Of a DNA stretch of 59,445 nucleotides, positions 634 to 37,720 are shown in pieces. A model generated the notes under the pieces. The model searched no databases and was not told the DNA's origin. It saw nothing but the letters and a program-made list of their open reading frames with translations. Every line of letters starts with the position of its first letter. Positions within the stretch are counted from its first letter, which is position 1. The position numbers were made by a program, and so were the translations under genes. Source of the stretch: Candidatus Daviesbacteria bacterium (GTDB lineage: Bacteria; Patescibacteriota; Microgenomatia; Daviesbacterales; UBA10151); contig JAUYKM010000005.1 of assembly GCA_030699125.1 (NCBI GenBank), forward strand, positions 1 to 59,445, in the 5' to 3' direction.

Positions 634-1388
634 GCAGGTTTTTTAGAAGTTTTCTTGACCAGGCCTTCAAAAGCGCGAAGTATTTCCAGGGGGGTGACAA
701 ATACAATAGTGTTATTTTTATCAGCAGATAATTCTCCCAGAGTTTGAAGGGTTCTAAGATGCAGACCCCCCGGCGTTGAAGAAAGCCTTTCTGCTGCCAA
801 AGTAATATTTTCAGCTGCTGCTTTTTCTCCTTCGGCCCGTATAATAATTGCCCTTCTTTCCCGTTCCGCTTCGGCCTGCCTTGCGATGACCCGTTTCATT
901 TCATCCGGCAAAATTATATCTTTTAGTTCCACAGACTCCACTTTTATTCCCCAGGGATCGGTTGCTTTATCGATAATCTTTTGTATTTTATCTGCCACCT
1001 CGTTTCTTTTGGATAAAAGGTCATCAAGGGCGGTTTCTCCCACCACGTTACGCATGGTGGTTTGCGCCAGTTGGGATACGGCATAGTAGAAGTCTTCTAC
1101 CTCAATCACTGCCTTGTTGGCTAAACTAATGCGATAATAAATAACTGCATTAACCTTTGCAGAAACATTATCTTTGGTGATGGCTTCCTGATCTGGTACA
1201 TCAACCGCCTTTACCCTTATATCTATCCTGGTCCAAGATTCTATAACAGGTAAGACAAGCCTCCAGCCGGGCTCCATCAGTCCTACATATTTACCAAATC
1301 TGAATTTGACCCCACGCTCATATTGATTGACCTGTTTGATGGAGTAGAAAAGAAGCAATAATAAAGGAAGTATCAGTAAAATTTCCAT
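630..1388 (-). CDS. SPFH/band-7 (stomatin-like) membrane protein
   Basis: N-terminal TM, then YERGVKFRFG, QEAITKDNVSAKVNAV, LAQTTMRNVVG, WGIKVESVE, RQAEAERERRA. Confidence 0.92.
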   Translation of the reverse strand: MEILLILPLLLLLFYSIKQVNQYERGVKFRFGKYVGLMEPGWRLVLPVIESWTRIDIRVKAVDVPDQEAITKDNVSAKVNAVIYYRISLANKAVIEVEDFYYAVSQLAQTTMRNVVGETALDDLLSKRNEVADKIQKIIDKATDPWGIKVESVELKDIILPDEMKRVIARQAEAERERRAIIIRAEGEKAAAENITLAAERLSSTPGGLHLRTLQTLGELSADKNNTIVFVTPLEILRAFEGLVKKTSKKPA

Positions 1389-1453
1389 CTAAGTATAGTA
1401 TACCATTTTCTAAAACATCTATTTTTGCCAACAATTTTTTAAGCTATAAACTT

Positions 1454-1597
1454 CCGCGGACTGAAAGTCCGCGGTTTTCTTTAAAAGTTTACAAGAAACT
1501 GCAGAAAACCCTACCTTAAGAATACCACCGATCATTCCGCGGAAGACTGTAATCACTTAAGCATTCATCCCCGCTTTAGAAAAGCAAGGTTTTCTGC
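1454..1597. mobile_element. Miniature hairpin-bounded element; possible IS200/IS605 (HUH) end remnant
   Basis: Perfect hairpin ccgcggact-gaa-agtccgcgg (1454-1474) and imperfect hairpin ccccgcttt-aga-aaagcaagg, both followed by ggttttct; gcagaaaacc (1501-1510) is the inverse of ggttttctgc (1588-1597); no transposase present. Confidence 0.35.
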
Positions 1598-1617
1598 TAG
1601 TGATTATAATTAAGTCT

Positions 1618-1827
1618 ATGATAAATAATCCCCAGCTTACAGTGCTTGTAGCCTTCGGGTTGCTCGTATTGATTGGGGGAGTTAATTTCGTTGCTGTCCG
1701 TTTTAGCAATCAAGAGCTTTATCCTTTTTGGGTCCAGTATAGAATTCGTGAGATTACACAAGAAAGTTCTATCAAAGTCTTTGCACAAGGAACTGTAACT
1801 CAACAAAGCAATATGTGGTTAAAATGA
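1618..1827 (+). CDS. Small membrane protein, hypothetical
   Basis: 69-codon ORF with one hydrophobic segment; stop overlaps the next ATG (ATGA). Confidence 0.4.
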   Translation: MINNPQLTVLVAFGLLVLIGGVNFVAVRFSNQELYPFWVQYRIREITQESSIKVFAQGTVTQQSNMWLK

Positions 1828-2666
1828 ATACTCTTAGCAACTACATTACGAAATATTTTCATTCTATGCATTATGTAGCCATATCTGTTCTGACTGTTGT
1901 GGCAGTTGTTGAAAGTATCGGCCGAGGATTTCCTATGAATGTGGTTGTTGCAGTTCTTACGGCATCCGTTCTTGATGTTGCAATGAACAAGTTCTTGGCT
2001 TCGCCAATGAAACGATTATGGCTAAAAAGTGTACCTGCGATACCCCTATCGGCAATCATTACTGGTTTGATAGTCGGAACGGTGTCGGTGAATGCGCCCG
2101 TTCTGAGTACTTTTATCGCAACTGTTCTTGCAATACTTTCTAAGTTTATCATCAGGTGGAAAGGTTCGCATATCTTCAATCCGGCTGTGTTCGGTGTGGT
2201 TACTGTGCAGGTTTTAAATCCTGCTGCTCATGGTGCCGCTGTCCATGGCTCGTCACAGATAATGGAGGGTTTTGGGCCCGGTGGCCTTGCTGTAAGTATG
2301 TGGTTAGTGCCGCTTTTACTATTTGCTTCCTTTCGAGCAAGGAAACTGTGGGTTTCAATACCATTTCTGATCGCATCAGCATTGCTTTTCTACTTCACAG
2401 GGCTTGTTAATCTAACTTCATTGAGTACCCAAGGTATATTTAAATTCCTTGAAGTCCTGCCCTATTATTTTGCATTCATTATAGTTTCAGAGCCCAAGAC
2501 TTCCCCTTGGGTAAAAAAAGAGCAGATTATATTCGGAATCGGTGTTGCAATTTTTTCCGTTTTACCTCTCCTTCTTTTTGGTTTCTATTCCCATGTCACA
2601 GCACTTGTAACACTGCTTCTTGGGAACTTAATCTATGCGACTTATCGCCTAAAAAATAGGGACTAA
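1824..2666 (+). CDS. RnfD/NqrB-family-like integral membrane protein (stand-alone)
   Basis: Multi-TM; SAIITGLIV, KFIIRWKGSHIFNPAVFG and FIIVSEPKTSP match RnfD/NqrB motifs. Confidence 0.75.
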   Translation: MNTLSNYITKYFHSMHYVAISVLTVVAVVESIGRGFPMNVVVAVLTASVLDVAMNKFLASPMKRLWLKSVPAIPLSAIITGLIVGTVSVNAPVLSTFIATVLAILSKFIIRWKGSHIFNPAVFGVVTVQVLNPAAHGAAVHGSSQIMEGFGPGGLAVSMWLVPLLLFASFRARKLWVSIPFLIASALLFYFTGLVNLTSLSTQGIFKFLEVLPYYFAFIIVSEPKTSPWVKKEQIIFGIGVAIFSVLPLLLFGFYSHVTALVTLLLGNLIYATYRLKNRD

Positions 2667-2809
2667 CCCGCCGGAACGAGCCTCGTCTATTCAGACGGAG
2701 TGAAAGTACCTTACTGTTAGGAAGCGAATGTTGACATCAGATTTGATGATTCATCTTGGCTACAGGGATCGAAACCCTATTCCCTCTGGTTCAACTCGAG
2801 CCGGAGGTT
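2665..2809. ncRNA. Candidate structured ncRNA (6S-like closing stem)
   Basis: GC-rich intergenic segment whose ends pair (aacccgccggaacgag with ctcgagccggaggtt); internal hairpins gtct-attc-agac, catca-gatt-tgatg, aggg..ccct. Confidence 0.3.
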
Positions 2810-2831
2810 CTATTTATGATAATATTTGATT

Positions 2832-3161
2832 ATGGCTTGGAAAGTTTTATTCTTTCAAACAACAAGAGGTGACTCTCCTGTGGAGGATTTTATTAAAGAG
2901 CAGGACGAAGCTACATATGCTAAAATTTTGCAGTCCATGAGACTTCTTGCTAATAATGGACCCTTTTTGAAACCTCCTTACATCAAAAAGATACAAGACA
3001 AGTTATACGAATTAAGAATATCCGGAAAAGTAGCAATAAGAATATTTTATACAATTACCAATCATGAGTACTATTTGCTACATGCTTTTAAGAAGAAAAG
3101 TCAAAAAACGCCCTTTAAAGAAATTAAGGTAGCCCTTGACAGAATGATAGAATTAGTATAG
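2832..3161 (+). CDS. Type II toxin, RelE/HigB (phage Gp49-like) family
   Basis: SPVEDFI, KLYELRI, RIFY, LLHAFKKKSQKTP..EI..A; lies upstream of an HTH gene. Confidence 0.88.
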   Translation: MAWKVLFFQTTRGDSPVEDFIKEQDEATYAKILQSMRLLANNGPFLKPPYIKKIQDKLYELRISGKVAIRIFYTITNHEYYLLHAFKKKSQKTPFKEIKVALDRMIELV

Positions 3162-3173
3162 CATATATGCTAT

Positions 3174-3479
3174 ATGATTAAACCTAAAGACAGAAAACAC
3201 CGAGACTTCAACGATTTCTTAAATGAGTCTCTTAAAAATCCTAAAATAAAAGCTGAATATGATAAGCTGCAGCCTGAATTTGCTATGATCCAAGCGGTTA
3301 TAGATGCGAGAGTTAAAAAGGGCGTAACGCAGAAAGAACTGGCTCAAAAAATTGGGACGAAACAATCTGTTATCTCAAGACTTGAGTCTGGAAAAGCTAA
3401 CCCATCGGTTGCCTTTCTTAAAAAACTAGCTCAAGCTCTAAACTCTCATCTGGAAATTAGATTTACCAATTTTAAATAA
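3174..3479 (+). CDS. XRE-family HTH antitoxin (HigA-like)
   Basis: TQKELAQKIGTKQSVISRLESGKANPS HTH; toxin-antitoxin gene order. Confidence 0.88.
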   Translation: MIKPKDRKHRDFNDFLNESLKNPKIKAEYDKLQPEFAMIQAVIDARVKKGVTQKELAQKIGTKQSVISRLESGKANPSVAFLKKLAQALNSHLEIRFTNFK

Positions 3480-3678
3480 GTCTCTTGTACTTTACTATAC
3501 ATCTTTTAGTCTAAATGTATAAGCAAATTCTGAGCTTAGACTATCAGATAGGAATAATTCGAAGAAACTCTTTAGTCTGTTTAAGGTACTAGCCGGATCA
3601 CTGATGCTGAGTGTTCGTTCTAATCCTATTATGCTTGACAAAGTCAACATCGTTCCAGGTTCACAGATTGAATTTTCT

Positions 3679-5475
3679 TTAGCCCTCTAAATTAATTTTT
3701 CTAATCCTAATATTTTTAGGAGTGACTTCAACTAATTCTGTTTCATCAATATATTCCATGGCATTTTCTAAGCTCATAACCTTGGGTGTATTAAAATGCT
3801 CTGATGTTCCCTCACCGGAGGATCTGTGATTGGTTTGCTGTTTCTCTTTGCAAACATTAATTCTAATATCATCCCCCCGGGAATTTTGTCCAATAACTTG
3901 TCCTTTATAAACTGAGGAGCCGGGACCTATGAATAAGTTTCCTCTATCTTGAGCCCCAATTAAGGCATACAGTTTGGTGATTCCTGCTTCGTGAACAACC
4001 AGTGAGCCGTTATTTCTTTGGAATCTGGTGCCTGAATCCAGCCGGTATTCAAAAAATGATGAGCTGATTATCCCCAGTCCTTTAGTATCTGTAACAAACT
4101 GAGACCTGTAGCCGAAAAACTCCTTGGTGGCAATTAAAAACTCCAAAAATACCACTCCGTTTCCTGCTTCGCCATTAGGTGAGTCTGTTACCATATCCAA
4201 AAGCTCTCCATGTCTTAATCCCATTTTCTGCATGATGGATCCGGAATACTCCTGCGGTACCTCGATGGCCACTTTCTCATATGGAGTTAAAGTTTTTCCG
4301 TTTTCAATTTTTTCAATAACTTGAGGCTTACCTACCTGAAATTCATATCCTTCTCTTCGCATTCTCTCAATCAAGATAGCCAGATGCAACTCCCCCCGCC
4401 CTGAGACAATCCATTCCGATCCTTCAGGTTCCACCTTAAGCGCTACATCAGCTTCCTGAGCCTTCAATAATCTTTCCTGAATCTGCCTGGCTGTTTTAAA
4501 CTCTCCCTCTATGCCGGTCAAAGGAGAGGTGTTTACTCCAAACTTCATTTTTACTGTTGAAGGTTCTATATCCAAAAGGGGCAAGGATACAGGATTTAGG
4601 GGATCGGATATAGTCTCACCTATCGTGATCTCGGGAATACCGGATAAGGCTACAATATCTCCGGATCCTGCTTGTTCAATGTCAATTCTGTCCAGTCCCT
4701 CAAATCCCATAAGGGAAGTTAGTTTAAATTTTTTAATTGAACCGTCTCTTTTGATATGGGCAACTTCCTGACCCTTTTTTACAGTACCATTATAAATTCT
4801 GCCGGTGGCAATTCTGCCTTTAAAATTATCATAATTTGTATTGGTGATTAAAATTTGTAAAGGTTTGTCAAGCTCCATTAAGGGGGATGGGATATGCTTT
4901 AAAACAGCATCAAAAAGGGGGGAAATATCATCCATTTTAGATAAATCAGCATCCAGTCCTGCTTTACCCTGTTTTCCTGAAGAATAGATGGTGGGGAAAA
5001 AAGAGGTTTCCTCATCTGCTCCCAGCTCCAAAAACAAATCAAAAGTCTTATTTAAAACATGTGAGATTCTAACACCAGGTTTATCTATTTTATTGATCAC
5101 TACAATCACTTTATGGCCCATCTCCAGCGCTTTTTTTAAAACAAACCTGGTTTGCGGCATGGGACCTTCTTTGGCATCAATTAAAAGGAGGGCTCCATCA
5201 GCCATTTTTAAAACGCGTTCCACCTCTCCCCCAAAATCAGCATGTCCCGGAGTATCAATAATATTAATCTTGGTATTTTTCCAATTGATAGAAGCATTTT
5301 TGGAAAAAATAGTAATTCCCCTTTCCCTTTCCAGATCATTGGAGTCCATAATAAGGTCGCCTTTGTCCTGAATTTCTTTGGAAATGTGAGTTTGGGATTG
5401 GCGAAGCAGGGCATCTACCAGAGTAGTTTTGCCGTGATCAACATGAGCTATAATTGCCACATTACGAATGTCCAT
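3679..5475 (-). CDS. typA: Translational GTPase TypA/BipA
   Basis: IRNVAIIAHVDHGKTTLVD, ERERGITI, DTPGHADFGGEVER, GRGELHLAILIE; C-terminal VTPKNIRIRK. Confidence 0.97.
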   Translation of the reverse strand: MDIRNVAIIAHVDHGKTTLVDALLRQSQTHISKEIQDKGDLIMDSNDLERERGITIFSKNASINWKNTKINIIDTPGHADFGGEVERVLKMADGALLLIDAKEGPMPQTRFVLKKALEMGHKVIVVINKIDKPGVRISHVLNKTFDLFLELGADEETSFFPTIYSSGKQGKAGLDADLSKMDDISPLFDAVLKHIPSPLMELDKPLQILITNTNYDNFKGRIATGRIYNGTVKKGQEVAHIKRDGSIKKFKLTSLMGFEGLDRIDIEQAGSGDIVALSGIPEITIGETISDPLNPVSLPLLDIEPSTVKMKFGVNTSPLTGIEGEFKTARQIQERLLKAQEADVALKVEPEGSEWIVSGRGELHLAILIERMRREGYEFQVGKPQVIEKIENGKTLTPYEKVAIEVPQEYSGSIMQKMGLRHGELLDMVTDSPNGEAGNGVVFLEFLIATKEFFGYRSQFVTDTKGLGIISSSFFEYRLDSGTRFQRNNGSLVVHEAGITKLYALIGAQDRGNLFIGPGSSVYKGQVIGQNSRGDDIRINVCKEKQQTNHRSSGEGTSEHFNTPKVMSLENAMEYIDETELVEVTPKNIRIRKINLEG

Positions 5476-5489
5476 ATGTATCTGCCATC

Positions 5490-5514
5490 AAAAAAACCGC
5501 CTCTTTTGGCGGTT
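5490..5514 (-). terminator. Intrinsic terminator-like hairpin between the typA promoter and typA start; could also terminate the topoisomerase IB gene
   Basis: Minus strand aaccgcc-aaaaga-ggcggtt followed by a T run. Confidence 0.65.
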
Positions 5515-5529
5515 CAAAAGCAGATGCTA

Positions 5530-5558
5530 AGTATACCATTTTGGATCCTACTTGGCAA
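5530..5558 (-). promoter_or_regulatory. sigma70-type promoter for typA
   Basis: TTGCCA-17 bp-TATACT on the minus strand. Confidence 0.55.
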
Positions 5559-5570
5559 ATGTTTAGGATT

Positions 5571-6629
5571 TTATATAGCGGGTTGGTATGTTTGGAGGAG
5601 TTTAATTAAAGCATATTCATCCCAAGCAAGACCTTTTTGTTTAGATTTGGATTTAGCATAATATGCAAAATGGGGAACCAAGATATTTTTCTGATAAGTT
5701 TCAAAAATAGCTGGATGGATATAATAATTTTTACAAACAGCAGTAGTATTGGCTAAATGCTGAGAAACTTTTTTAACAGTTTGGAGAATATTTTGCTTTA
5801 GCGTTTTTTTATCCTTAGGCTCTCCCAGTTTATAAAAATTAGTGGCAGAGATATTAGTTCCTCCCCAGGTTCTGAAATCCTTGGCTGAAAAATCATCAGA
5901 GGTGATATCTTTTAGGAATAAATTAACATCAGAGGAGTCCACCACATGTCTTTCTCCCTCCGGATCAACAAATTGAAAAAGTTCATATCCCGGCAATTCA
6001 ATACACTTTTTTATAGTTTGAGAGATTTTTTTATTGGATACTTCAATTAAATGATTAACTCCACTTTTACCCCTGAATTCAAATAAAACCTGAGAGCCCC
6101 TGACTTTAACATGTTTATTTCGAAGAGTTGTTAGGCCAAAAGAGTTATTTTCCCTGCTATATTCTTCATTACCAATTCTTATAAAGGTATGTTCCAAAAG
6201 CCACACCACTGCGGATAGAATTTTTCTCTTATCAATATCTCTGCTGTCTAAATAATATGCAACTCTTTGTCTGATTTTAGGTAGAGACAAACCAAAGGAA
6301 ACTACTCTGGAAAATTTATTTTGTCCCCTTAGAAGAGTCCAATCATGATGATAAATATATTGTTTTCTATTTCTTTCATCTACTCCTGTTGCTTGAATAT
6401 GACCAGAAGGACTGGGGCAGATCCAAACATTATCCCATGCTGGAGGGATAACTAGCTTCTCAATTCTTTTTAGAGTTCGCTTATCCTTAATGGTTTTGCC
6501 TCCTAAGTCATAATATTTGAAAGTTTTTCCCAAATTTTGGCGTATAAATCCTGGACTAGAATCAGAGACAAAGTGTAAAGCTTGTTTTTTAAGTTGTTTT
6601 TGTAAGATAGGGTCAGTTTGAAGATTCAT
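5571..6629 (-). CDS. Bacterial DNA topoisomerase IB (poxvirus-like)
   Basis: IPPAWDNVWICP, GRKQY-like NRKQYIYH, IRIGNEEY, FGLTTLRNKH, FRGKSG, SAKDFRTW, LANTTAVCKNYYIHP (catalytic R/K/R/N/Y). Confidence 0.93.
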   Translation of the reverse strand: MNLQTDPILQKQLKKQALHFVSDSSPGFIRQNLGKTFKYYDLGGKTIKDKRTLKRIEKLVIPPAWDNVWICPSPSGHIQATGVDERNRKQYIYHHDWTLLRGQNKFSRVVSFGLSLPKIRQRVAYYLDSRDIDKRKILSAVVWLLEHTFIRIGNEEYSRENNSFGLTTLRNKHVKVRGSQVLFEFRGKSGVNHLIEVSNKKISQTIKKCIELPGYELFQFVDPEGERHVVDSSDVNLFLKDITSDDFSAKDFRTWGGTNISATNFYKLGEPKDKKTLKQNILQTVKKVSQHLANTTAVCKNYYIHPAIFETYQKNILVPHFAYYAKSKSKQKGLAWDEYALIKLLQTYQPAI

Positions 6630-15237: not shown

Positions 15238-16290
15238 TTATGGGTTTAGTATTACTTGATTCTCTTCTGAAATCCCATCTTTAATTTCTACTTCAGTGTC
15301 TGTTTGGATGCCAATTTTAACAATCCGTTTTTGTGGACCCTGATTGGTTTGGACAAAGACGCTATTATCATCCTTTAAGGCTTCAATCGGGATAATTAGA
15401 GTATCTTCTATTCTGCTAATTTCTATTGAGGCCTGGCCGGAAAGGCCATTAACAAATTTTTCGGGCGTATTATTGAGTTTAATTTTAACAATCACTACAG
15501 TGGCTCCGGTGGAGGTAGTGATGGTTTGGGGAATAATTTGATCGATGGCACCCTCGAAAATCTGGTCCGGGTAGCTATCTAAGGTAATATTTGCTTTTTG
15601 ATTGGGCAAGATTTTCCCAATATCTGCCTCATCCACCTCGGCATTAAAATATATTTTAGAGGTATTAATTAGTGTGATGATAACATCTTGGGTGGAAACA
15701 TTTTGCCCACTGATAAAATTTACTTCCGTGACAATTCCCCCAACCGGCGCAATTATCAGAGTATCCTCCAGGGCTTTTTGAGTAAGTTTCACTGAATCAT
15801 AGGCATTATCTCTGACAACTTCAGCAGTAGTTCTCAACTGTCTCTGGGTCATGGTTTCATTGAGGGTGCCGATATTGTCAAATCCACCCATGCCGTATTG
15901 AAAAAGATGAATATCATCTAACACTTTATCAAGTTGAGCCTGCTTGTCTCTTAAAGTATTTTGGGCTTGCTGGAGGGCAATCAATTGATCACTATTATCC
16001 AGATTTGCCAAAAATTGACCTGCATAGACTCTATCTCCCTCTTTAACATTAACCCGGGCGAGCTTACCGATGGTTTGAAATCTTAATGGAATCATCTTTT
16101 GGCCGGATAATGTACCTGCCGCTGAAACCTCTGCTACCAAATCACCTTTTCTAACTGTGGTAACCTCAGAAGGTTTTTGGTCACTTCGGGTAGAGTAAAA
16201 TATGAAACCCGTAGCAACTAATAATAAAATTAGACCTATAGCTAAATACTTTTTAGGCCATTTCCCAATGTTTCGAACCATATTTTTCAT
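15238..16290 (-). CDS. MacA-like membrane fusion/adaptor protein
   Basis: N-terminal TM, VKEGDRV, APVGGIV, VDEADIGKI, GLSEGD-like GISEENQV. Confidence 0.88.
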   Translation of the reverse strand: MKNMVRNIGKWPKKYLAIGLILLLVATGFIFYSTRSDQKPSEVTTVRKGDLVAEVSAAGTLSGQKMIPLRFQTIGKLARVNVKEGDRVYAGQFLANLDNSDQLIALQQAQNTLRDKQAQLDKVLDDIHLFQYGMGGFDNIGTLNETMTQRQLRTTAEVVRDNAYDSVKLTQKALEDTLIIAPVGGIVTEVNFISGQNVSTQDVIITLINTSKIYFNAEVDEADIGKILPNQKANITLDSYPDQIFEGAIDQIIPQTITTSTGATVVIVKIKLNNTPEKFVNGLSGQASIEISRIEDTLIIPIEALKDDNSVFVQTNQGPQKRIVKIGIQTDTEVEIKDGISEENQVILNP

Positions 16291-22851: not shown

Positions 22852-23853
22852 TTATATGTTTCCTCGTCTATATGCTTCCTGAATAAGCGCAAGTTCTTTT
22901 GTACTTATTAAAGATTTTCCTTGAGCAAGATGTCTCGCGAAATCTCTATAAACACCTCTATATTCTGAGCTTAGCGAAGAATTCAAGCTCTGCCATGTAC
23001 CAGACGGTACATGACTCTGCTTAATACGAAGTATCAAGCTCTGCTTATATTCTGACTGCTGATCAACTATTTCTCGCGAGCCATCTTCAGTCATTTGTAC
23101 TTCTCCGTTTTTGCTGAAAATATTCTTCACAATATCAACTACATATGTGTCTCCGTCTGCTGTAAATGTAACTTGTCGCACTTCAGGTCCTTTATTCATC
23201 CAGTCCATAGAAAGAGTACCAGAACCTTTGCCATACGAAAATCTAACATGTGCTTCCGTCTCAACTTTAAAACCCTCAGCTTTTTTGAATTTTGCATCTT
23301 TTACTGAGAAAGAAGTCCAATCAGGGAGAACATACGTTACAACTGAAAGTGCATTAATACCGCTATCGATAAGTACCCCACCTCCTGCAATTTCAGGATT
23401 AAAAATCCATCCAGGAGTAGCATGATAATTTGGAGCATATTCGCTATATTGAATATCAATCCCTTCAATATTTTTATCTACGAGTTCTTCTTTTGCTGCT
23501 TCAACAGCTGGATTATACCGTGCATGAAATGACATAAAAAGTACTCTTTCCTGCTGATTTGCAAAAACACTCATTTCTTCACATTGAGCTACAGTTAAAG
23601 CAGGAGGCTTTTCAACCAATACATGTTTTCCCCCGCGAAGAGCATCCATAACGAGCTGGTGATGAGTATTTGGAGGAGTATTGATGCTTACTGCTTGAAT
23701 GTTTGGATTCGTAAGTACTTCCCTAACAGATTGAGTACTAAGATCTGCGATAGCTTTGACTTGAAAGTCTTTTTGTCCAGATTTTGTTAATGCGTCATAA
23801 TGAATCTTACCTATATTACCAAAACCTATTAGTCCTAAAGAGTAGGAGGGCAT
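22852..23853 (-). CDS. Gfo/Idh/MocA-family oxidoreductase containing a 29-aa insertion
   Basis: GLIGFGNIG, TPPNTH, GKHVLVEKP, GGGVLIDSGIN. Confidence 0.9.
   Translation of the reverse strand: MPSYSLGLIGFGNIGKIHYDALTKSGQKDFQVKAIADLSTQSVREVLTNPNIQAVSINTPPNTHHQLVMDALRGGKHVLVEKPPALTVAQCEEMSVFANQQERVLFMSFHARYNPAVEAAKEELVDKNIEGIDIQYSEYAPNYHATPGWIFNPEIAGGGVLIDSGINALSVVTYVLPDWTSFSVKDAKFKKAEGFKVETEAHVRFSYGKGSGTLSMDWMNKGPEVRQVTFTADGDTYVVDIVKNIFSKNGEVQMTEDGSREIVDQQSEYKQSLILRIKQSHVPSGTWQSLNSSLSSEYRGVYRDFARHLAQGKSLISTKELALIQEAYRRGNI
22969..23055. repeat. 87-bp in-frame palindromic insertion flanked by a 10-bp direct repeat
   Basis: tatattctga at 22959 and 23046 (87 bp apart); internal catgtacc-agac-ggtacatg hairpin; tcaagctctgc occurs twice. 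Confidence 0.75.
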
Positions 23854-24674: not shown

Positions 24675-24898
24675 AAAAGTATTAGAAAACAATTGGGTAG
24701 TTGAACTCTAAGAGTTAAACTGTCAAAAATAAATGAAGTGTAATTTCTTGCAGTCGAAATAACGTAATCATTAAGTTTTCTAAATGTTGATTATATACTA
24801 CTTACCTTAAATTAGAAACAAGCTGGATAGTAAATGCCAGTTTGATGAGTTCAAACCTCCCATCAGGGGTAGTAAAAGTTGAGGCTAAAAGGTACTAG

Positions 24899-24971
24899 GG
24901 TGGCTGACGGGAATTGAACCCGCAACATTCAGATCCACAATCTGACGCTCTGCCATTGAGCTACAGCCACC
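24899..24971 (-). tRNA. tRNA-His(GUG)
   Basis: G-1, GTGGCTG/CAGCCAC, anticodon arm TCAGA-TT-GTG-GA-TCTGA, T-loop TTCAATT, C discriminator. Confidence 0.95.
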
Positions 24972-25034: not shown

Positions 25035-25136
25035 AAAAATCCGACCTTGCGGCCGGATTCTTAGAGAACCTGTTACTGTTAGCTTTTGATGGCCAACGAA
25101 ACTTTCAATCTTGCGATATCAGTTTTAACAGGTTCT
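25035..25136 (-). ncRNA. Candidate small RNA / attenuator (three-way junction plus terminator)
   Basis: 11-bp closing stem agaacctgtta/taacaggttct, inner hairpins atc-GCAA-gat and gttggc-catcaaaa-gctaac, then aatccggcc-GCAA-ggtcggatt followed by a T run. Confidence 0.55.
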
Positions 25137-25139
25137 GTA

Positions 25140-25168
25140 ACTATATAATGATAAACAACTTCTGTCAA
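25140..25168 (-). promoter_or_regulatory. Near-consensus sigma70 promoter driving the candidate sRNA
   Basis: TTGACA-17 bp-TATAGT. Confidence 0.7.
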
Positions 25169-25170
25169 CT

Positions 25171-25205
25171 GGGATTAAATGGATCATATCCCATCAAAAC
25201 ACCAA
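25171..25205 (+). repeat. Array repeat A, copy 1 (partial)
   Basis: gggattaaatggatcatatcccatcaaaacaccaa; lacks ataaatgccg relative to copies 2 and 3. Confidence 0.8.
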
Positions 25206-36158: not shown

Positions 36159-36401
36159 ATGTTAGAACTTTCCGAACCTGTTAATGTCTGGGTGTTTTTT
36201 AAAGGTACCAAAGTGGAACCCTGGTGTTTTTTCTGGCGTTCCAGACAAATCAAAGTAGACAAAATTAATCTGGTCCATACCTCAAAAGAAGGCAATACTG
36301 TTTTTTATCATTTTTCTATATCTAGTGGGGGTAATTTTTACAGATTAAAGTTTGATGCAACTAAGATGAATTGGATACTTGAGGGAGTGGAGGAAGGGTG
36401 A
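36159..36401 (+). CDS. Small conserved-looking protein coupled to dinB
   Basis: 80 aa, FFWRSRQIKV...W; stop overlaps the dinB GTG. Confidence 0.65.
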   Translation: MLELSEPVNVWVFFKGTKVEPWCFFWRSRQIKVDKINLVHTSKEGNTVFYHFSISSGGNFYRLKFDATKMNWILEGVEEG

Positions 36402-37720
36402 GAACTATACTGCATATTGACTTTAATTCATACTTTGCCACAGTTGAGCAGCAGGCTAATCCGCGTTTGCGTGGGAAACCGATTGGGGTAACCGGCGGAG
36501 ACCGCATGGCAAGAACAGTTCTAGGTGCTGCTTCTGTGGAGGCCAAAAGATTTGGGGTTAAAACCGGTATGCAGATTTGGGAGGCTAAAAAGCTTTGCCC
36601 TGAGCTTATTTTGGTGAAAGGGGATTCGGATAAGTATTTGGAGTGTACCAAGAGATTTTTGGCCATTTTAAAAGACTACAGCCCTGCTTTGGAGGTATTT
36701 AGTATTGATGAATGCTTTTTAGAGCTCTCTCCTCCTGTCATTGCGAGCAAAGCGAAGCAATCTAGTCAAGATAGAAACCCAACCCAGATTGCTTCGTCGC
36801 TACCGCTCCTCGCAATGACAATAAAACAGCGTATCAGAGCTGAGATAGGTGAGTGGATTACTTGTTCTATTGGCATTTCCTATAACAAACTGATGGCTAA
36901 GCTGGCTGGATCTTTATATAAGCCAGATGGATTGGTGGTAATCGAGGATGAGAAAGCTGCCCAATTTATTTTAGATAGGGTAGAGTTGGATGATATATGC
37001 GGGATAGGGGGGAGAATCAAAAAGAGGCTGAATAATATGGGGGTTTTTAACTTTACCCAGTTAAGAAAAGTGCCTCTAAGGGCACTTTTGGCCTCCTTTA
37101 AATCTTATGGGCAAATTCTTTATAACATGGCCAGAGGGATAGATTATTCGAAAATTATGCCATTTTATGAGAAAGAGGAAGTTAAAAGTATCGGCCACAG
37201 GCATACTATAGATCATGATACAGACAACCCCCAGGAGATTAAGCAAATCTTACTTAAACTGACAGAATTGGTAGCGAGAAGGCTTCGGGCTAAAAAGTTG
37301 GTAGGGAAAACTGTCCATTGTTGGTACAGAGAAGCTGTGAAAGAACTGGGAGCTAAGAACTATGAACTAGGAAATTATTCTCCTAGTTCCACTTTCCAAG
37401 GTGATGGGATGCAAACTACAATTAATCCCACCCAAAATGGATTGGAAATTTTTAAAGCTGCCTGGGGAATCTTTCATCAGATATGGGATGGAAATAGAAT
37501 CCGTATGATTGGGGTATCAATTTCCAACCTCAAGCTACAAAATCCAAAAAATTTGACTTTTTTAGAAAAGGATCTCCGTCAGGAAAAGATCCTGCAAACT
37601 CTGGATAAAATTAATGACAGATATGGAGAGTTTACATTACAAAGAGGACTTCTTCTTGGATCTGTCACCATGCGCCGTAAACCCAACCCCTTTTTAGCAG
37701 ACAGAAGATTCAAGCTATAA
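36398..37720 (+). CDS. dinB: DNA polymerase IV (Y family) with two in-frame repeat insertions
   Basis: HIDFNSYFATVEQ, SVEAKRFGVKTGM, SIDECFL, SYNKLMAKLA, GIG, IGVSISNL. Confidence 0.95.
   Translation: MRTILHIDFNSYFATVEQQANPRLRGKPIGVTGGDRMARTVLGAASVEAKRFGVKTGMQIWEAKKLCPELILVKGDSDKYLECTKRFLAILKDYSPALEVFSIDECFLELSPPVIASKAKQSSQDRNPTQIASSLPLLAMTIKQRIRAEIGEWITCSIGISYNKLMAKLAGSLYKPDGLVVIEDEKAAQFILDRVELDDICGIGGRIKKRLNNMGVFNFTQLRKVPLRALLASFKSYGQILYNMARGIDYSKIMPFYEKEEVKSIGHRHTIDHDTDNPQEIKQILLKLTELVARRLRAKKLVGKTVHCWYREAVKELGAKNYELGNYSPSSTFQGDGMQTTINPTQNGLEIFKAAWGIFHQIWDGNRIRMIGVSISNLKLQNPKNLTFLEKDLRQEKILQTLDKINDRYGEFTLQRGLLLGSVTMRRKPNPFLADRRFKL
36736..36820. repeat. RPE-like palindromic element in frame in dinB
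   Basis: Outer 12-bp arms tgtcattgcgag/ctcgcaatgaca; inner 11-bp arms cgaagcaatct/agattgcttcg. Confidence 0.85.
37343..37389. repeat. Heptamer tandem plus hairpin in frame in dinB
   Basis: gaactgg-gagctaa-gaactat-gaactag; gaactagga/tcctagttc 9-bp stem. Confidence 0.6.

Follow-up and report, generated by a model that had tools for sequence, protein, structure and literature searches.

How does a core enzyme come to carry, in its reading frame, a stretch of palindromic DNA, and what kind of element could have left it there? The question is posed by a 59,445-nt stretch of Candidatus Daviesbacteria DNA (contig JAUYKM010000005.1; the whole of it is 'the window' below), where the gene for DNA polymerase IV, dinB, has an 85-nt nested palindrome shortly after the codons for its catalytic SIDE motif. 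A first-pass annotation of the window had likened it to the Rickettsia palindromic elements (RPEs), and supposed that a comparable family is active in this lineage of the candidate phyla radiation (CPR) and adds new peptide to a core enzyme. The answer that we consider probable is that the palindrome is a non-autonomous miniature of an element with a GIY-YIG nuclease gene, inserted in frame in a loop of dinB and translated. That origin, the role of dinB as a lineage-wide hotspot for such repeats and their rarity away from it all go beyond what had been proposed.

A nested palindrome in the dinB reading frame

By its domains (Pfam IMS, 4.5e-40, with IMS_C and IMS_HHH_1) and its catalytic Asp and Glu residues the host open reading frame (ORF; Table 1) is predicted to encode a DNA polymerase IV, i.e., DinB of the Y family. 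It matches solved structures of that enzyme (best PDB 7yll, E = 4.5e-51), and in an alignment with its relatives (120 orthologues of 66–80% identity, mostly from Candidatus Daviesbacteria) D8 is nearly invariant, and D104 and E105 are invariant. The nested 85-bp palindrome that had been described, with perfect arms of 12 and 11 bp, is confirmed by coordinates and pairing: its outer arms, TGTCATTGCGAG (36736-36747) and CTCGCAATGACA (36809-36820), pair over 12 nt and its inner arms, CGAAGCAATCT (36753-36763) and AGATTGCTTCG (36786-36796), over 11 nt, in both cases at 100%. Compared with dinucleotide shuffles, the RNA fold has z = -6.4 and -6.5 for the two strands and the DNA fold z = -6.3 for both, with 0 of 200 shuffles equally stable. 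The palindrome is in frame in dinB and has no stop codon, the peptide being VIASKAKQSSQDRNPTQIASSLPLLAMT (V114-T141, coded by 36737-36820).

Might this be nothing other than an ordinary loop of the lineage, palindromic by chance and without any repeat element? One lone 12-nt inverted repeat within 150 nt is unremarkable in 59 kb, and the window has other pairs of 11–12 nt, so the case has to rest on the nesting and on membership of a family. Arms that are both nested and perfect (z about -6.3), the recurrence of the same sequence hundreds of times elsewhere and the existence of an orthologue with an empty site all tell against chance; with the family copies, that empty site and the metagenome depths, all described below, the explanation is already refuted, and the probability left to it is practically nil.

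Among the 120 Daviesbacteria DinB proteins the segment from SIDE through CSIGIS ranges from a minimum of 39 aa to a maximum of 85, the window having 60. The empty-site orthologue (L284, P0039, 79% identical; such handles are used where loci have to be told apart) reads GAG, then ATTGGGGTCGAACCCCTGAAAATCGCTCAAGAG, then ATAAAA. In place of its 33 nt the window has 96 nt (36725-36820, i.e., an 11-nt leader plus the palindrome), which on balance adds 63 nt, or 21 aa. As 85 is not a multiple of three, the insert is better taken as 96 nt that replaced 33 nt of ancestral loop and, judged by comparison with the empty-site allele that defines it, palindrome plus leader constitutes an insertion. The first-pass annotation was thus right to place it in frame after SIDE and to expect that orthologues would lack the segment, while its inserted length of 85 nt and its gap of about 28 aa give way to the figures above. 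The empty-site loop of L284 holds a small palindrome of its own, GGGGTCGAACCCC.

The junctions are not uniform. Three orthologues (L121, L123 and L287) have the right half-unit alone, joined to ATWAA at exactly the junction found in the window, and the full elements of the window's sequence type (type A) end further upstream, by 12 nt in L285 and L286 and by 18 nt in L147 and L203, which points either to several insertion events or to junctions that have eroded. The arms are perfect in the window, and the copies in L285 and L286 have one mismatch each.

Is the insert translated, or is it an intervening sequence, removed from RNA or protein so that no peptide is added? The relevant set is of 50 species-level dinB loci of Daviesbacteria type, 47 of them found by tblastn, independently of gene calling, with L121, L123 and the window added. 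In all 50 the loop DNA (111–258 nt) has a length divisible by three and contains no stop codon. Because removal before translation would lift the constraint on frame and stops, this conservation speaks for translation; the insert is, from the frame, most likely translated, and the proposal that it adds peptide to a core enzyme gains support to that extent. The ends of the palindrome do pair perfectly, and would bring the two halves of the gene together in RNA. However, inserts of many lengths and families are in frame and stop-free throughout the 50 loci, an intron that splices itself would need more than 85 nt, nothing intein-like is present and an Rfam search of 36400-37200, with E up to 10, gave only a meaningless match to a long non-coding RNA, so that removal seems very improbable.

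In an AlphaFold2 model of DinB (mean predicted local distance difference test score, pLDDT, 83.5) a strand at residues 105-110 is followed by coil of low confidence (111-128) and then by a helix (129-149), in accord with the surface loop that had been anticipated for the insert. As modelled, the left arm and spacer are a floppy surface loop and the right arm lengthens the next helix, replacing its usual '..IAQE' start. In the solved structures of Pol IV this loop is shorter. Alignments to human Pol kappa break in two at query residue 112, and it is at this same position that human Pol kappa has a long disordered insertion. Y-family palm loops such as that of Pol kappa share the location, right after the strand with the catalytic Asp-Glu; there, however, the sequence is ordinary and lineage-specific, whereas here it consists of copies of a dispersed repeat.

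The repeat family and its nuclease

What, then, is the family? Its unit is GTCATTGCGAG, a variable piece and GAAGCAATC-YRG. A search of a viral collection with the half-element pattern GTCATTGCGAG-N4-14-GAAGCAATC, for which we estimate that roughly one match would be expected by chance, gave at least 120 contigs, with 185 half-matches and 19 strict full palindromes (66–119 nt) among those listed. The full copies have the layout of the window copy, with a 6-nt piece (e.g., CGAAGC) on one side, a 13-nt piece of GAGCnnnnGCGAC form on the other and a variable spacer, and in other copies a pyrimidine-rich leader is often found before GTCATT, as in L222 where GGCTCTCTCCT directly precedes GTCATTGCGAG. 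No target-site duplication or direct flanking repeat is present at the window copy or at the 19 full copies. The family extends to Alphaproteobacteria: one replicon of Novosphingobium resinovorum has it in at least 40 places, and plasmids of Methylosinus and Methylobacterium have it too. With these, with copies at the same site or near dinB in relatives and with the excess depth in metagenomes, the expectation that the palindrome has other copies has been amply borne out, though within the 59-kb window neither arm has a second one. Eight of 43 compact copies elsewhere fall within long frames that have no stop; most of these are in GC-rich contigs, in which chance produces such frames, so that they are weak evidence. 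Two natural insert peptides, joined into a 56-aa query for a protein search, gave three weak matches, to tiny hypothetical ORFs, and phage GenBank records gave partial matches only.

Several copies have arrangements of their own. At 2695-2818 of L040 four A-type half-units stand in tandem, in the same orientation and 33 nt apart, as an array and not a palindrome. At 15345-15403 of L142 an inverted pair of units (beginning GTCATGCTGAAC and GTCATCCCGGAC) is within another long ORF (15243-16073, minus strand), a possible in-frame insertion outside dinB. Two other identities were considered for the repeat and rejected: an integron attC site, as R boxes are absent, and a CRISPR repeat, as the tandem half-units of L040, at 33 nt, are too closely spaced for one.

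Four groundwater or freshwater metagenome runs that hold sequence similar to the window dinB, X1, X3 and X4 among them, gave a measure of abundance. In X1 the depth goes from about 40–60 over dinB to 1,270–2,810 over the element; in X4 it is up to 5,930 over the element, and in X3 it is 70–206 even though most of dinB is uncovered there. Overall the summed depth of the unit in the source metagenomes is 30- to 100-fold in excess of that of dinB, and in the four runs contig flanks diverge at both ends of the right unit (36786/7 and 36819-22). One X4 contig links the end of a right unit (36819) to the start of a left unit (36737) via 24 nt, i.e., head-to-tail, as in BIME-like clusters. A repeat with so very high a copy number, at which the assembly graph breaks into short contigs, could have been misthreaded into dinB or have joined two genomes. 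Yet overlapping X1 contigs, with depths of 40, 50 and 38, tile both junctions, the same dinB frame continues in both flanks and full A-type elements are at the same site in independent assemblies (L147, L203, L285 and L286), which leaves an assembly artefact extremely improbable.

A full-text literature search with the sister motif GTCATTCCCGC led to the NTS of Neisseria, CGTCATTCCCGCGMAVGCGGGAATCYRG (Chenal et al. 2025, Nat Commun, PMC11893778). Its partner, SsnA, is a small GIY-YIG protein, encoded by an NTS-flanked gene, that binds the hairpin and cuts nearby, and does so in single-stranded DNA (ssDNA) only; homologues of SsnA from across the bacteria have related hairpins, named 'SRM', on their flanks, the 'NTS-ssnA-NTS' architecture being known for Ssn site-specific single-strand DNA nucleases (PMC11893778). 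NTS cluster around particular genes and modulate Neisseria transformation; they are rare within genes (2%), and that paper is without in-frame copies or gene-less doublets as such (PMC11893778). Both units of the window palindrome have the NTS flanks, GTCATT...AATC-YRG (with TAG and TGG respectively), and both have the head and tail of an SRM, namely (C)GTCWY at the 5′ end and RNC-YNB at the 3′ end, around a palindromic core.

The association of unit and nuclease is visible only when the nuclease gene, and not the repeat copies, is taken as the starting point. Directly upstream of dinB in L150 (5514-5888) an A-type unit (5514-5545) is followed by a 96-aa ORF (5558-5848) and an inverted unit (5850-5888). 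The ORF matches Pfam GIY-YIG with E = 4.6e-18, and the spacing of its Y7, Y18 and E65 equals that of SsnA Y6, Y17 and E64, the residues mutated in the Neisseria work (PMC11893778). Among 80 metagenomic relatives of this nuclease (52–73% identity), an A-type unit is upstream at 51 of 76 assessable loci, downstream at 53 of 76 and on both sides at 40 of 72. Two relatives (L239 and L241) are flanked instead by canonical NTS-type units, those with canonical NTS being at about 60% identity. In the source metagenomes GIY-YIG gene fragments are present at a depth of about 10–60, and in one X1 contig the beginning of the gene is connected to a unit. Beside the viral-collection copies, in the 120 contigs listed, there is one GIY-YIG gene (L080), which is frameshifted and has a different hairpin type as its flank. 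Since the nuclease gene of L150 lies between the same ends, the window copy is a gene-less doublet, with an 18-nt spacer in the gene's place.

How might such a doublet have come to be part of DinB? The full element consists of the gene for a single-domain GIY-YIG nuclease of about 96 aa between two inverted hairpin-type units, and the window copy has both terminal units joined by the spacer instead of the gene. A nuclease of this type, encoded elsewhere, would recognise the units as ssDNA and spread them. On this scheme the doublet and its CT-rich leader replaced the 33 nt of loop after the catalytic SIDE strand, and copies that preserve the frame would survive because the loop tolerates extra residues. 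The insert would be translated, with left arm and spacer as disordered surface loop and the right arm, TQIASSLPLLAMT, extending the next helix N-terminally; the protein is presumably made with the insert, and the enzyme presumably still works.

A number of points weigh against this account. The published SRM pattern, HGTCWYN(0-2)YYVSBRHN(0-5)WNVSBRGN(0-2)RNCYNB, has no match on either strand of the element, because its core starts with TGCGAG at a place for which the pattern demands YY; the pattern does match the window twice elsewhere, once per strand. As ssDNA a lone unit has a 5-bp ATTGC/GCAAT stem of -2.6 to -2.7 kcal/mol, with z about 0, versus the 8-bp hairpin of NTS; in many of the copies elsewhere the variable piece holds an additional GC stem. 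The nearest solved structures to the L150-type nuclease are UPF0213 proteins. No GIY-YIG gene is within the window, so that a cognate nuclease in this genome is an assumption, and translation is deduced from the conservation of frame. No footprint of transposition, target-site duplication or other, is visible at the copy, and we know of no mechanism of spread for Ssn elements. As the defining pattern fails, the palindrome is not filed as a member of the SRM class as published; the description that fits it best is that of a new sequence variant among the Ssn-related hairpin repeats, present as a gene-less doublet and in frame in an RPE-like manner.

The dinB operon as a collecting site

The loop after SIDE is home to more than one kind of repeat. 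A-type inserts are in 28 of the 120 orthologues (peptides VIA[RS].., ..LAMT, ..RND. and DCH/DCF), type B in five (VIPAKAGIQ..RGDD, with NTS-like GTCATTCCYGC) and type C in three (EILRL..AQDD..SEAKNL), the reverse complement of type C, GTC-ATCCT...AGGAT-CTC, fitting the same template. Further loops are of types D to G, 13 are long and unclassified, and 48 are short and without a recognisable insert. In a census of 846 kb of Daviesbacteria-like DNA the exact 11-mer GTCATTGCGAG, for which about 0.4 sites are expected, was found 12 times, of which seven are in the SIDE loop, three just upstream of dinB, one in frame in the second variable loop of dinB (L162) and one elsewhere. Eleven of the 12 exact sites, and about 29 of 37 convincing units, are in or within about 300 nt of dinB, a region that makes up roughly 10% of the 846 kb. 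With a generic definition of the unit (GTC-W-Y, a 5-bp stem, then C) there are 20 units in 8.5 kb of loops and 58 in 837 kb elsewhere, a density 34-fold higher in the loops. Many of the convincing units outside the SIDE loop are at operon borders or in the second loop; those away from dinB are few and mostly intergenic. Given this rarity, the supposition that a comparable family is active in the CPR lineage holds mainly for the dinB operon, and not for Daviesbacteria DNA at large. A sliding scan of the 846 kb for minimum free energy in 90-nt segments was dominated by GC content and, in its 30-nt steps, missed the window element; it was dropped as a test, having pointed to a second structured region of dinB.

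An 80-aa ORF is conserved upstream of dinB in L123, L150, L284, L286 and L287, and elements are at its borders in L123, L134, L142, L147, L150 and L156. Its sole Pfam match, to the I-TevI DNA-binding domain, is below threshold (E = 0.005; 17 bits versus a cut-off of 27). Exactly between this ORF and dinB, L134 and L156 have a second GIY-YIG subfamily with flanking hairpins of CTTCGACT type, so that full GIY-YIG genes of two subfamilies occupy that place in 3 of 50 genomes (L134 5717-5941, L156 274-516 and L150 5558-5848). In L151 and L203 more GIY-YIG genes adjoin tRNA genes. The second dinB loop (aa 303-346) has 26–60 residues in the 120 orthologues; palindromic peptides, HPRGE..LHPGG for one, are numerous in it, and in relatives A-type and B-type units are in frame there (L162 3944-3975, L126 10970-11035). 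In the window this loop has a 9-bp inverted repeat, GAACTAGGA/TCCTAGTTC, and pLDDT is below 50 for residues 320-331; 37335-37439 is absent from an X1 contig (depth 24) that jumps over it, suggesting that a strain which co-occurs is different at this loop. The dinB gene is, then, a lineage-wide hotspot for several hairpin families, with one operon hit at four points.

Is tolerance enough to explain the pattern, with insertion being random and the loop one of few harmless coding sites? The loop is variable across the Y family, alignments of Pol IV from E. coli and others are gapped here, the model has low-confidence coil, and that all retained inserts are in frame implies that selection filters the survivors. 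However, intergenic DNA is at least as tolerant, yet very few units are away from dinB, and intergenic borders of the operon have also been struck, in three cases by full elements with a nuclease gene, from two subfamilies. Tolerance as the whole explanation is therefore rather improbable; the pattern at dinB is not explained by a tolerant loop alone, and could reflect insertion beside resident copies (Neisseria NTS are similarly clustered), homing-like recognition of conserved DNA or selection for hairpins.

The last of these options, that the hairpins are kept at dinB for a function, deserves separate mention as it is compatible with an origin as a nuclease-element miniature and adds to it. 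They could be sites for ssDNA cleavage or for limiting recombination, mRNA structures that lower expression of this error-prone polymerase, or targets of homing type beside the conserved SIDE-coding DNA. The concentration of exact sites and convincing units at dinB, the 34-fold unit density in the loop, the sharing of one loop by no fewer than three sequence types (A, B and C) and the perfection of the window arms, versus one mismatch each in L285 and L286, can all be read in this way, and clustered NTS offer a precedent in modulating Neisseria transformation (PMC11893778). On the other hand, 48 of the 120 orthologues do with short loops that have no recognisable insert, the half-deleted copies of L121, L123 and L287 show that the hairpin is dispensable and the clustering could come from mere insertion beside existing copies; we regard retention for function as possible though unlikely.

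Table 1. Coordinates in the window of the palindrome, its host gene and neighbouring features
Feature	Coordinates	Strand	Remarks
dinB (predicted DNA polymerase IV, 440 aa), host gene	36398..37720	+	SIDE = aa 102-105 (36701-36712)
CT-rich leader CTCTCTCCTCC, arriving with the element	36725..36735	+	Missing from the empty-site orthologue L284 (DNA alignment)
85-nt nested palindrome: two inverted units and 18-nt spacer	36736..36820		Layout as in 19 strict full copies elsewhere (66–119 nt)
Left unit, GTCATT-GCGAGCAAAGCGAAGC-AATCTAG	36737..36765	+	NTS-like flanks GTCATT...AATC-YRG; relaxed frame match; depth bins over it up to 1,270–5,930 in the metagenome runs
Spacer between units, variable in sequence among copies	36766..36783		Position of the 96-aa GIY-YIG gene in the full-length copy of L150
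Right unit, GTCATT-GCGAGGAGCGGTAGCGACGAAGC-AATCTGG (minus-strand reading)	36784..36819	-	Relaxed frame match; ends marked by divergence of contig flanks
80-aa ORF upstream of dinB	36159..36401	+	4-nt overlap with the dinB start; operon with dinB
Second variable dinB loop (aa ~313-335)	37334..37402	+	Window +18 aa; repeat-family units here in relatives

Elsewhere in the window two more clusters of overlapping imperfect inverted repeats (14–27 nt, 70–93% complementary) are at 1451-1597 and 25061-25199, the latter just 3′ of tRNA-His (24898-24970), and GTCATTTCATGCACGGTATAATCCAG, at 23508-23533 on the minus strand, conforms to the relaxed GTCATT...AATCYRG frame without the family core, probably by chance.

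Kinship with known repeats and what follows from it

The closest likeness is to the NTS or SRM repeats with their Ssn nucleases. Shared with them are the GTCATT 5′ and AATC-YRG 3′ flanks around a central core, the inverted units to either side of a GIY-YIG gene with one domain and about 96 aa (in L150 and relatives, not within the window), the high copy number (in the source metagenomes, there being one copy in the 59-kb window) and the clustering at particular genes. The differences are in the core (GCGAG...GAAGC in the window versus CCCGCG-MAV-GCGGG in NTS), in the hairpin of the window unit, which is weak, with stability coming from pairing between two units, and in the CPR host, the favoured site, dinB, and the in-frame gene-less doublet. 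In the literature searched we found no report of these repeats in CPR bacteria, in dinB or in frame.

RPEs, reportedly described by Ogata and co-workers in 2000, are said to be short palindromic repeats in frame in protein-coding genes. The likeness to them is in mode of insertion, an in-frame palindromic repeat that yields extra surface peptide without destroying the protein, and the window palindrome is not filed as an RPE. In contrast to RPEs, here one loop of one gene has been struck repeatedly, by several families and across a lineage, and a nuclease-bearing full-length form has been identified for the window family. Rickettsia is among the genomes with more than 300 SRMs (PMC11893778), and a real relationship of RPEs to the window family is possible; no paper linking RPEs to GIY-YIG was found.

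With MITEs (miniature transposable elements that have inverted repeats), REPIN/RAYT and IS200/IS605-PATE the family shares gene-less derivatives that keep the structured ends of a gene-bearing element and miniatures that far outnumber the gene copies (a depth ratio of about 30–200 to 1), and with REPINs the folding of two inverted units into a long hairpin. As in a classical MITE there are terminal perfect inverted repeats of 12 nt, and the same ends are around the nuclease gene in L150, but the target-site duplication of a classical MITE is lacking. REP/REPIN-RAYT systems are different in that the gene here is GIY-YIG, not a DDE or HUH (Y1) transposase, and the head is GTCATT, with no GTAG type.

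What does this mean for the biology of the repeats and their hosts? Two separate observations, that of RPE-type in-frame palindromes and that of hairpin repeats of Ssn nucleases, are joined: nuclease-linked units, as a doublet without the gene, can turn into coding sequence. Where metagenome proteins contain peptides like VIASEAKQS...LAMT, HCEERSDEAI and SLRGAKRRSNL, these are recognisable as translations of the repeat. The repeat class is extended both to a sequence type missed by the published SRM pattern and to CPR bacteria. Four insertion points in one operon, always in frame when inside the gene, amount to a natural experiment on the tolerance of a Y-family polymerase for added peptide. 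The enrichment at dinB also raises the question of whether the elements choose their targets. It is doubtful that these GIY-YIG (Ssn-like) hairpin elements specifically target the Daviesbacteria operon of the small ORF and dinB, by homing-type recognition of the conserved SIDE-coding DNA or by insertion beside resident copies, and that their hairpins are used by the cell, e.g., as ssDNA cleavage sites that keep recombination at dinB in check or as expression brakes on a mutagenic polymerase. If so, however, a single-strand nuclease system would be functionally tied to translesion synthesis, and in-frame repeat insertion would be a regulated feature and not an accident.

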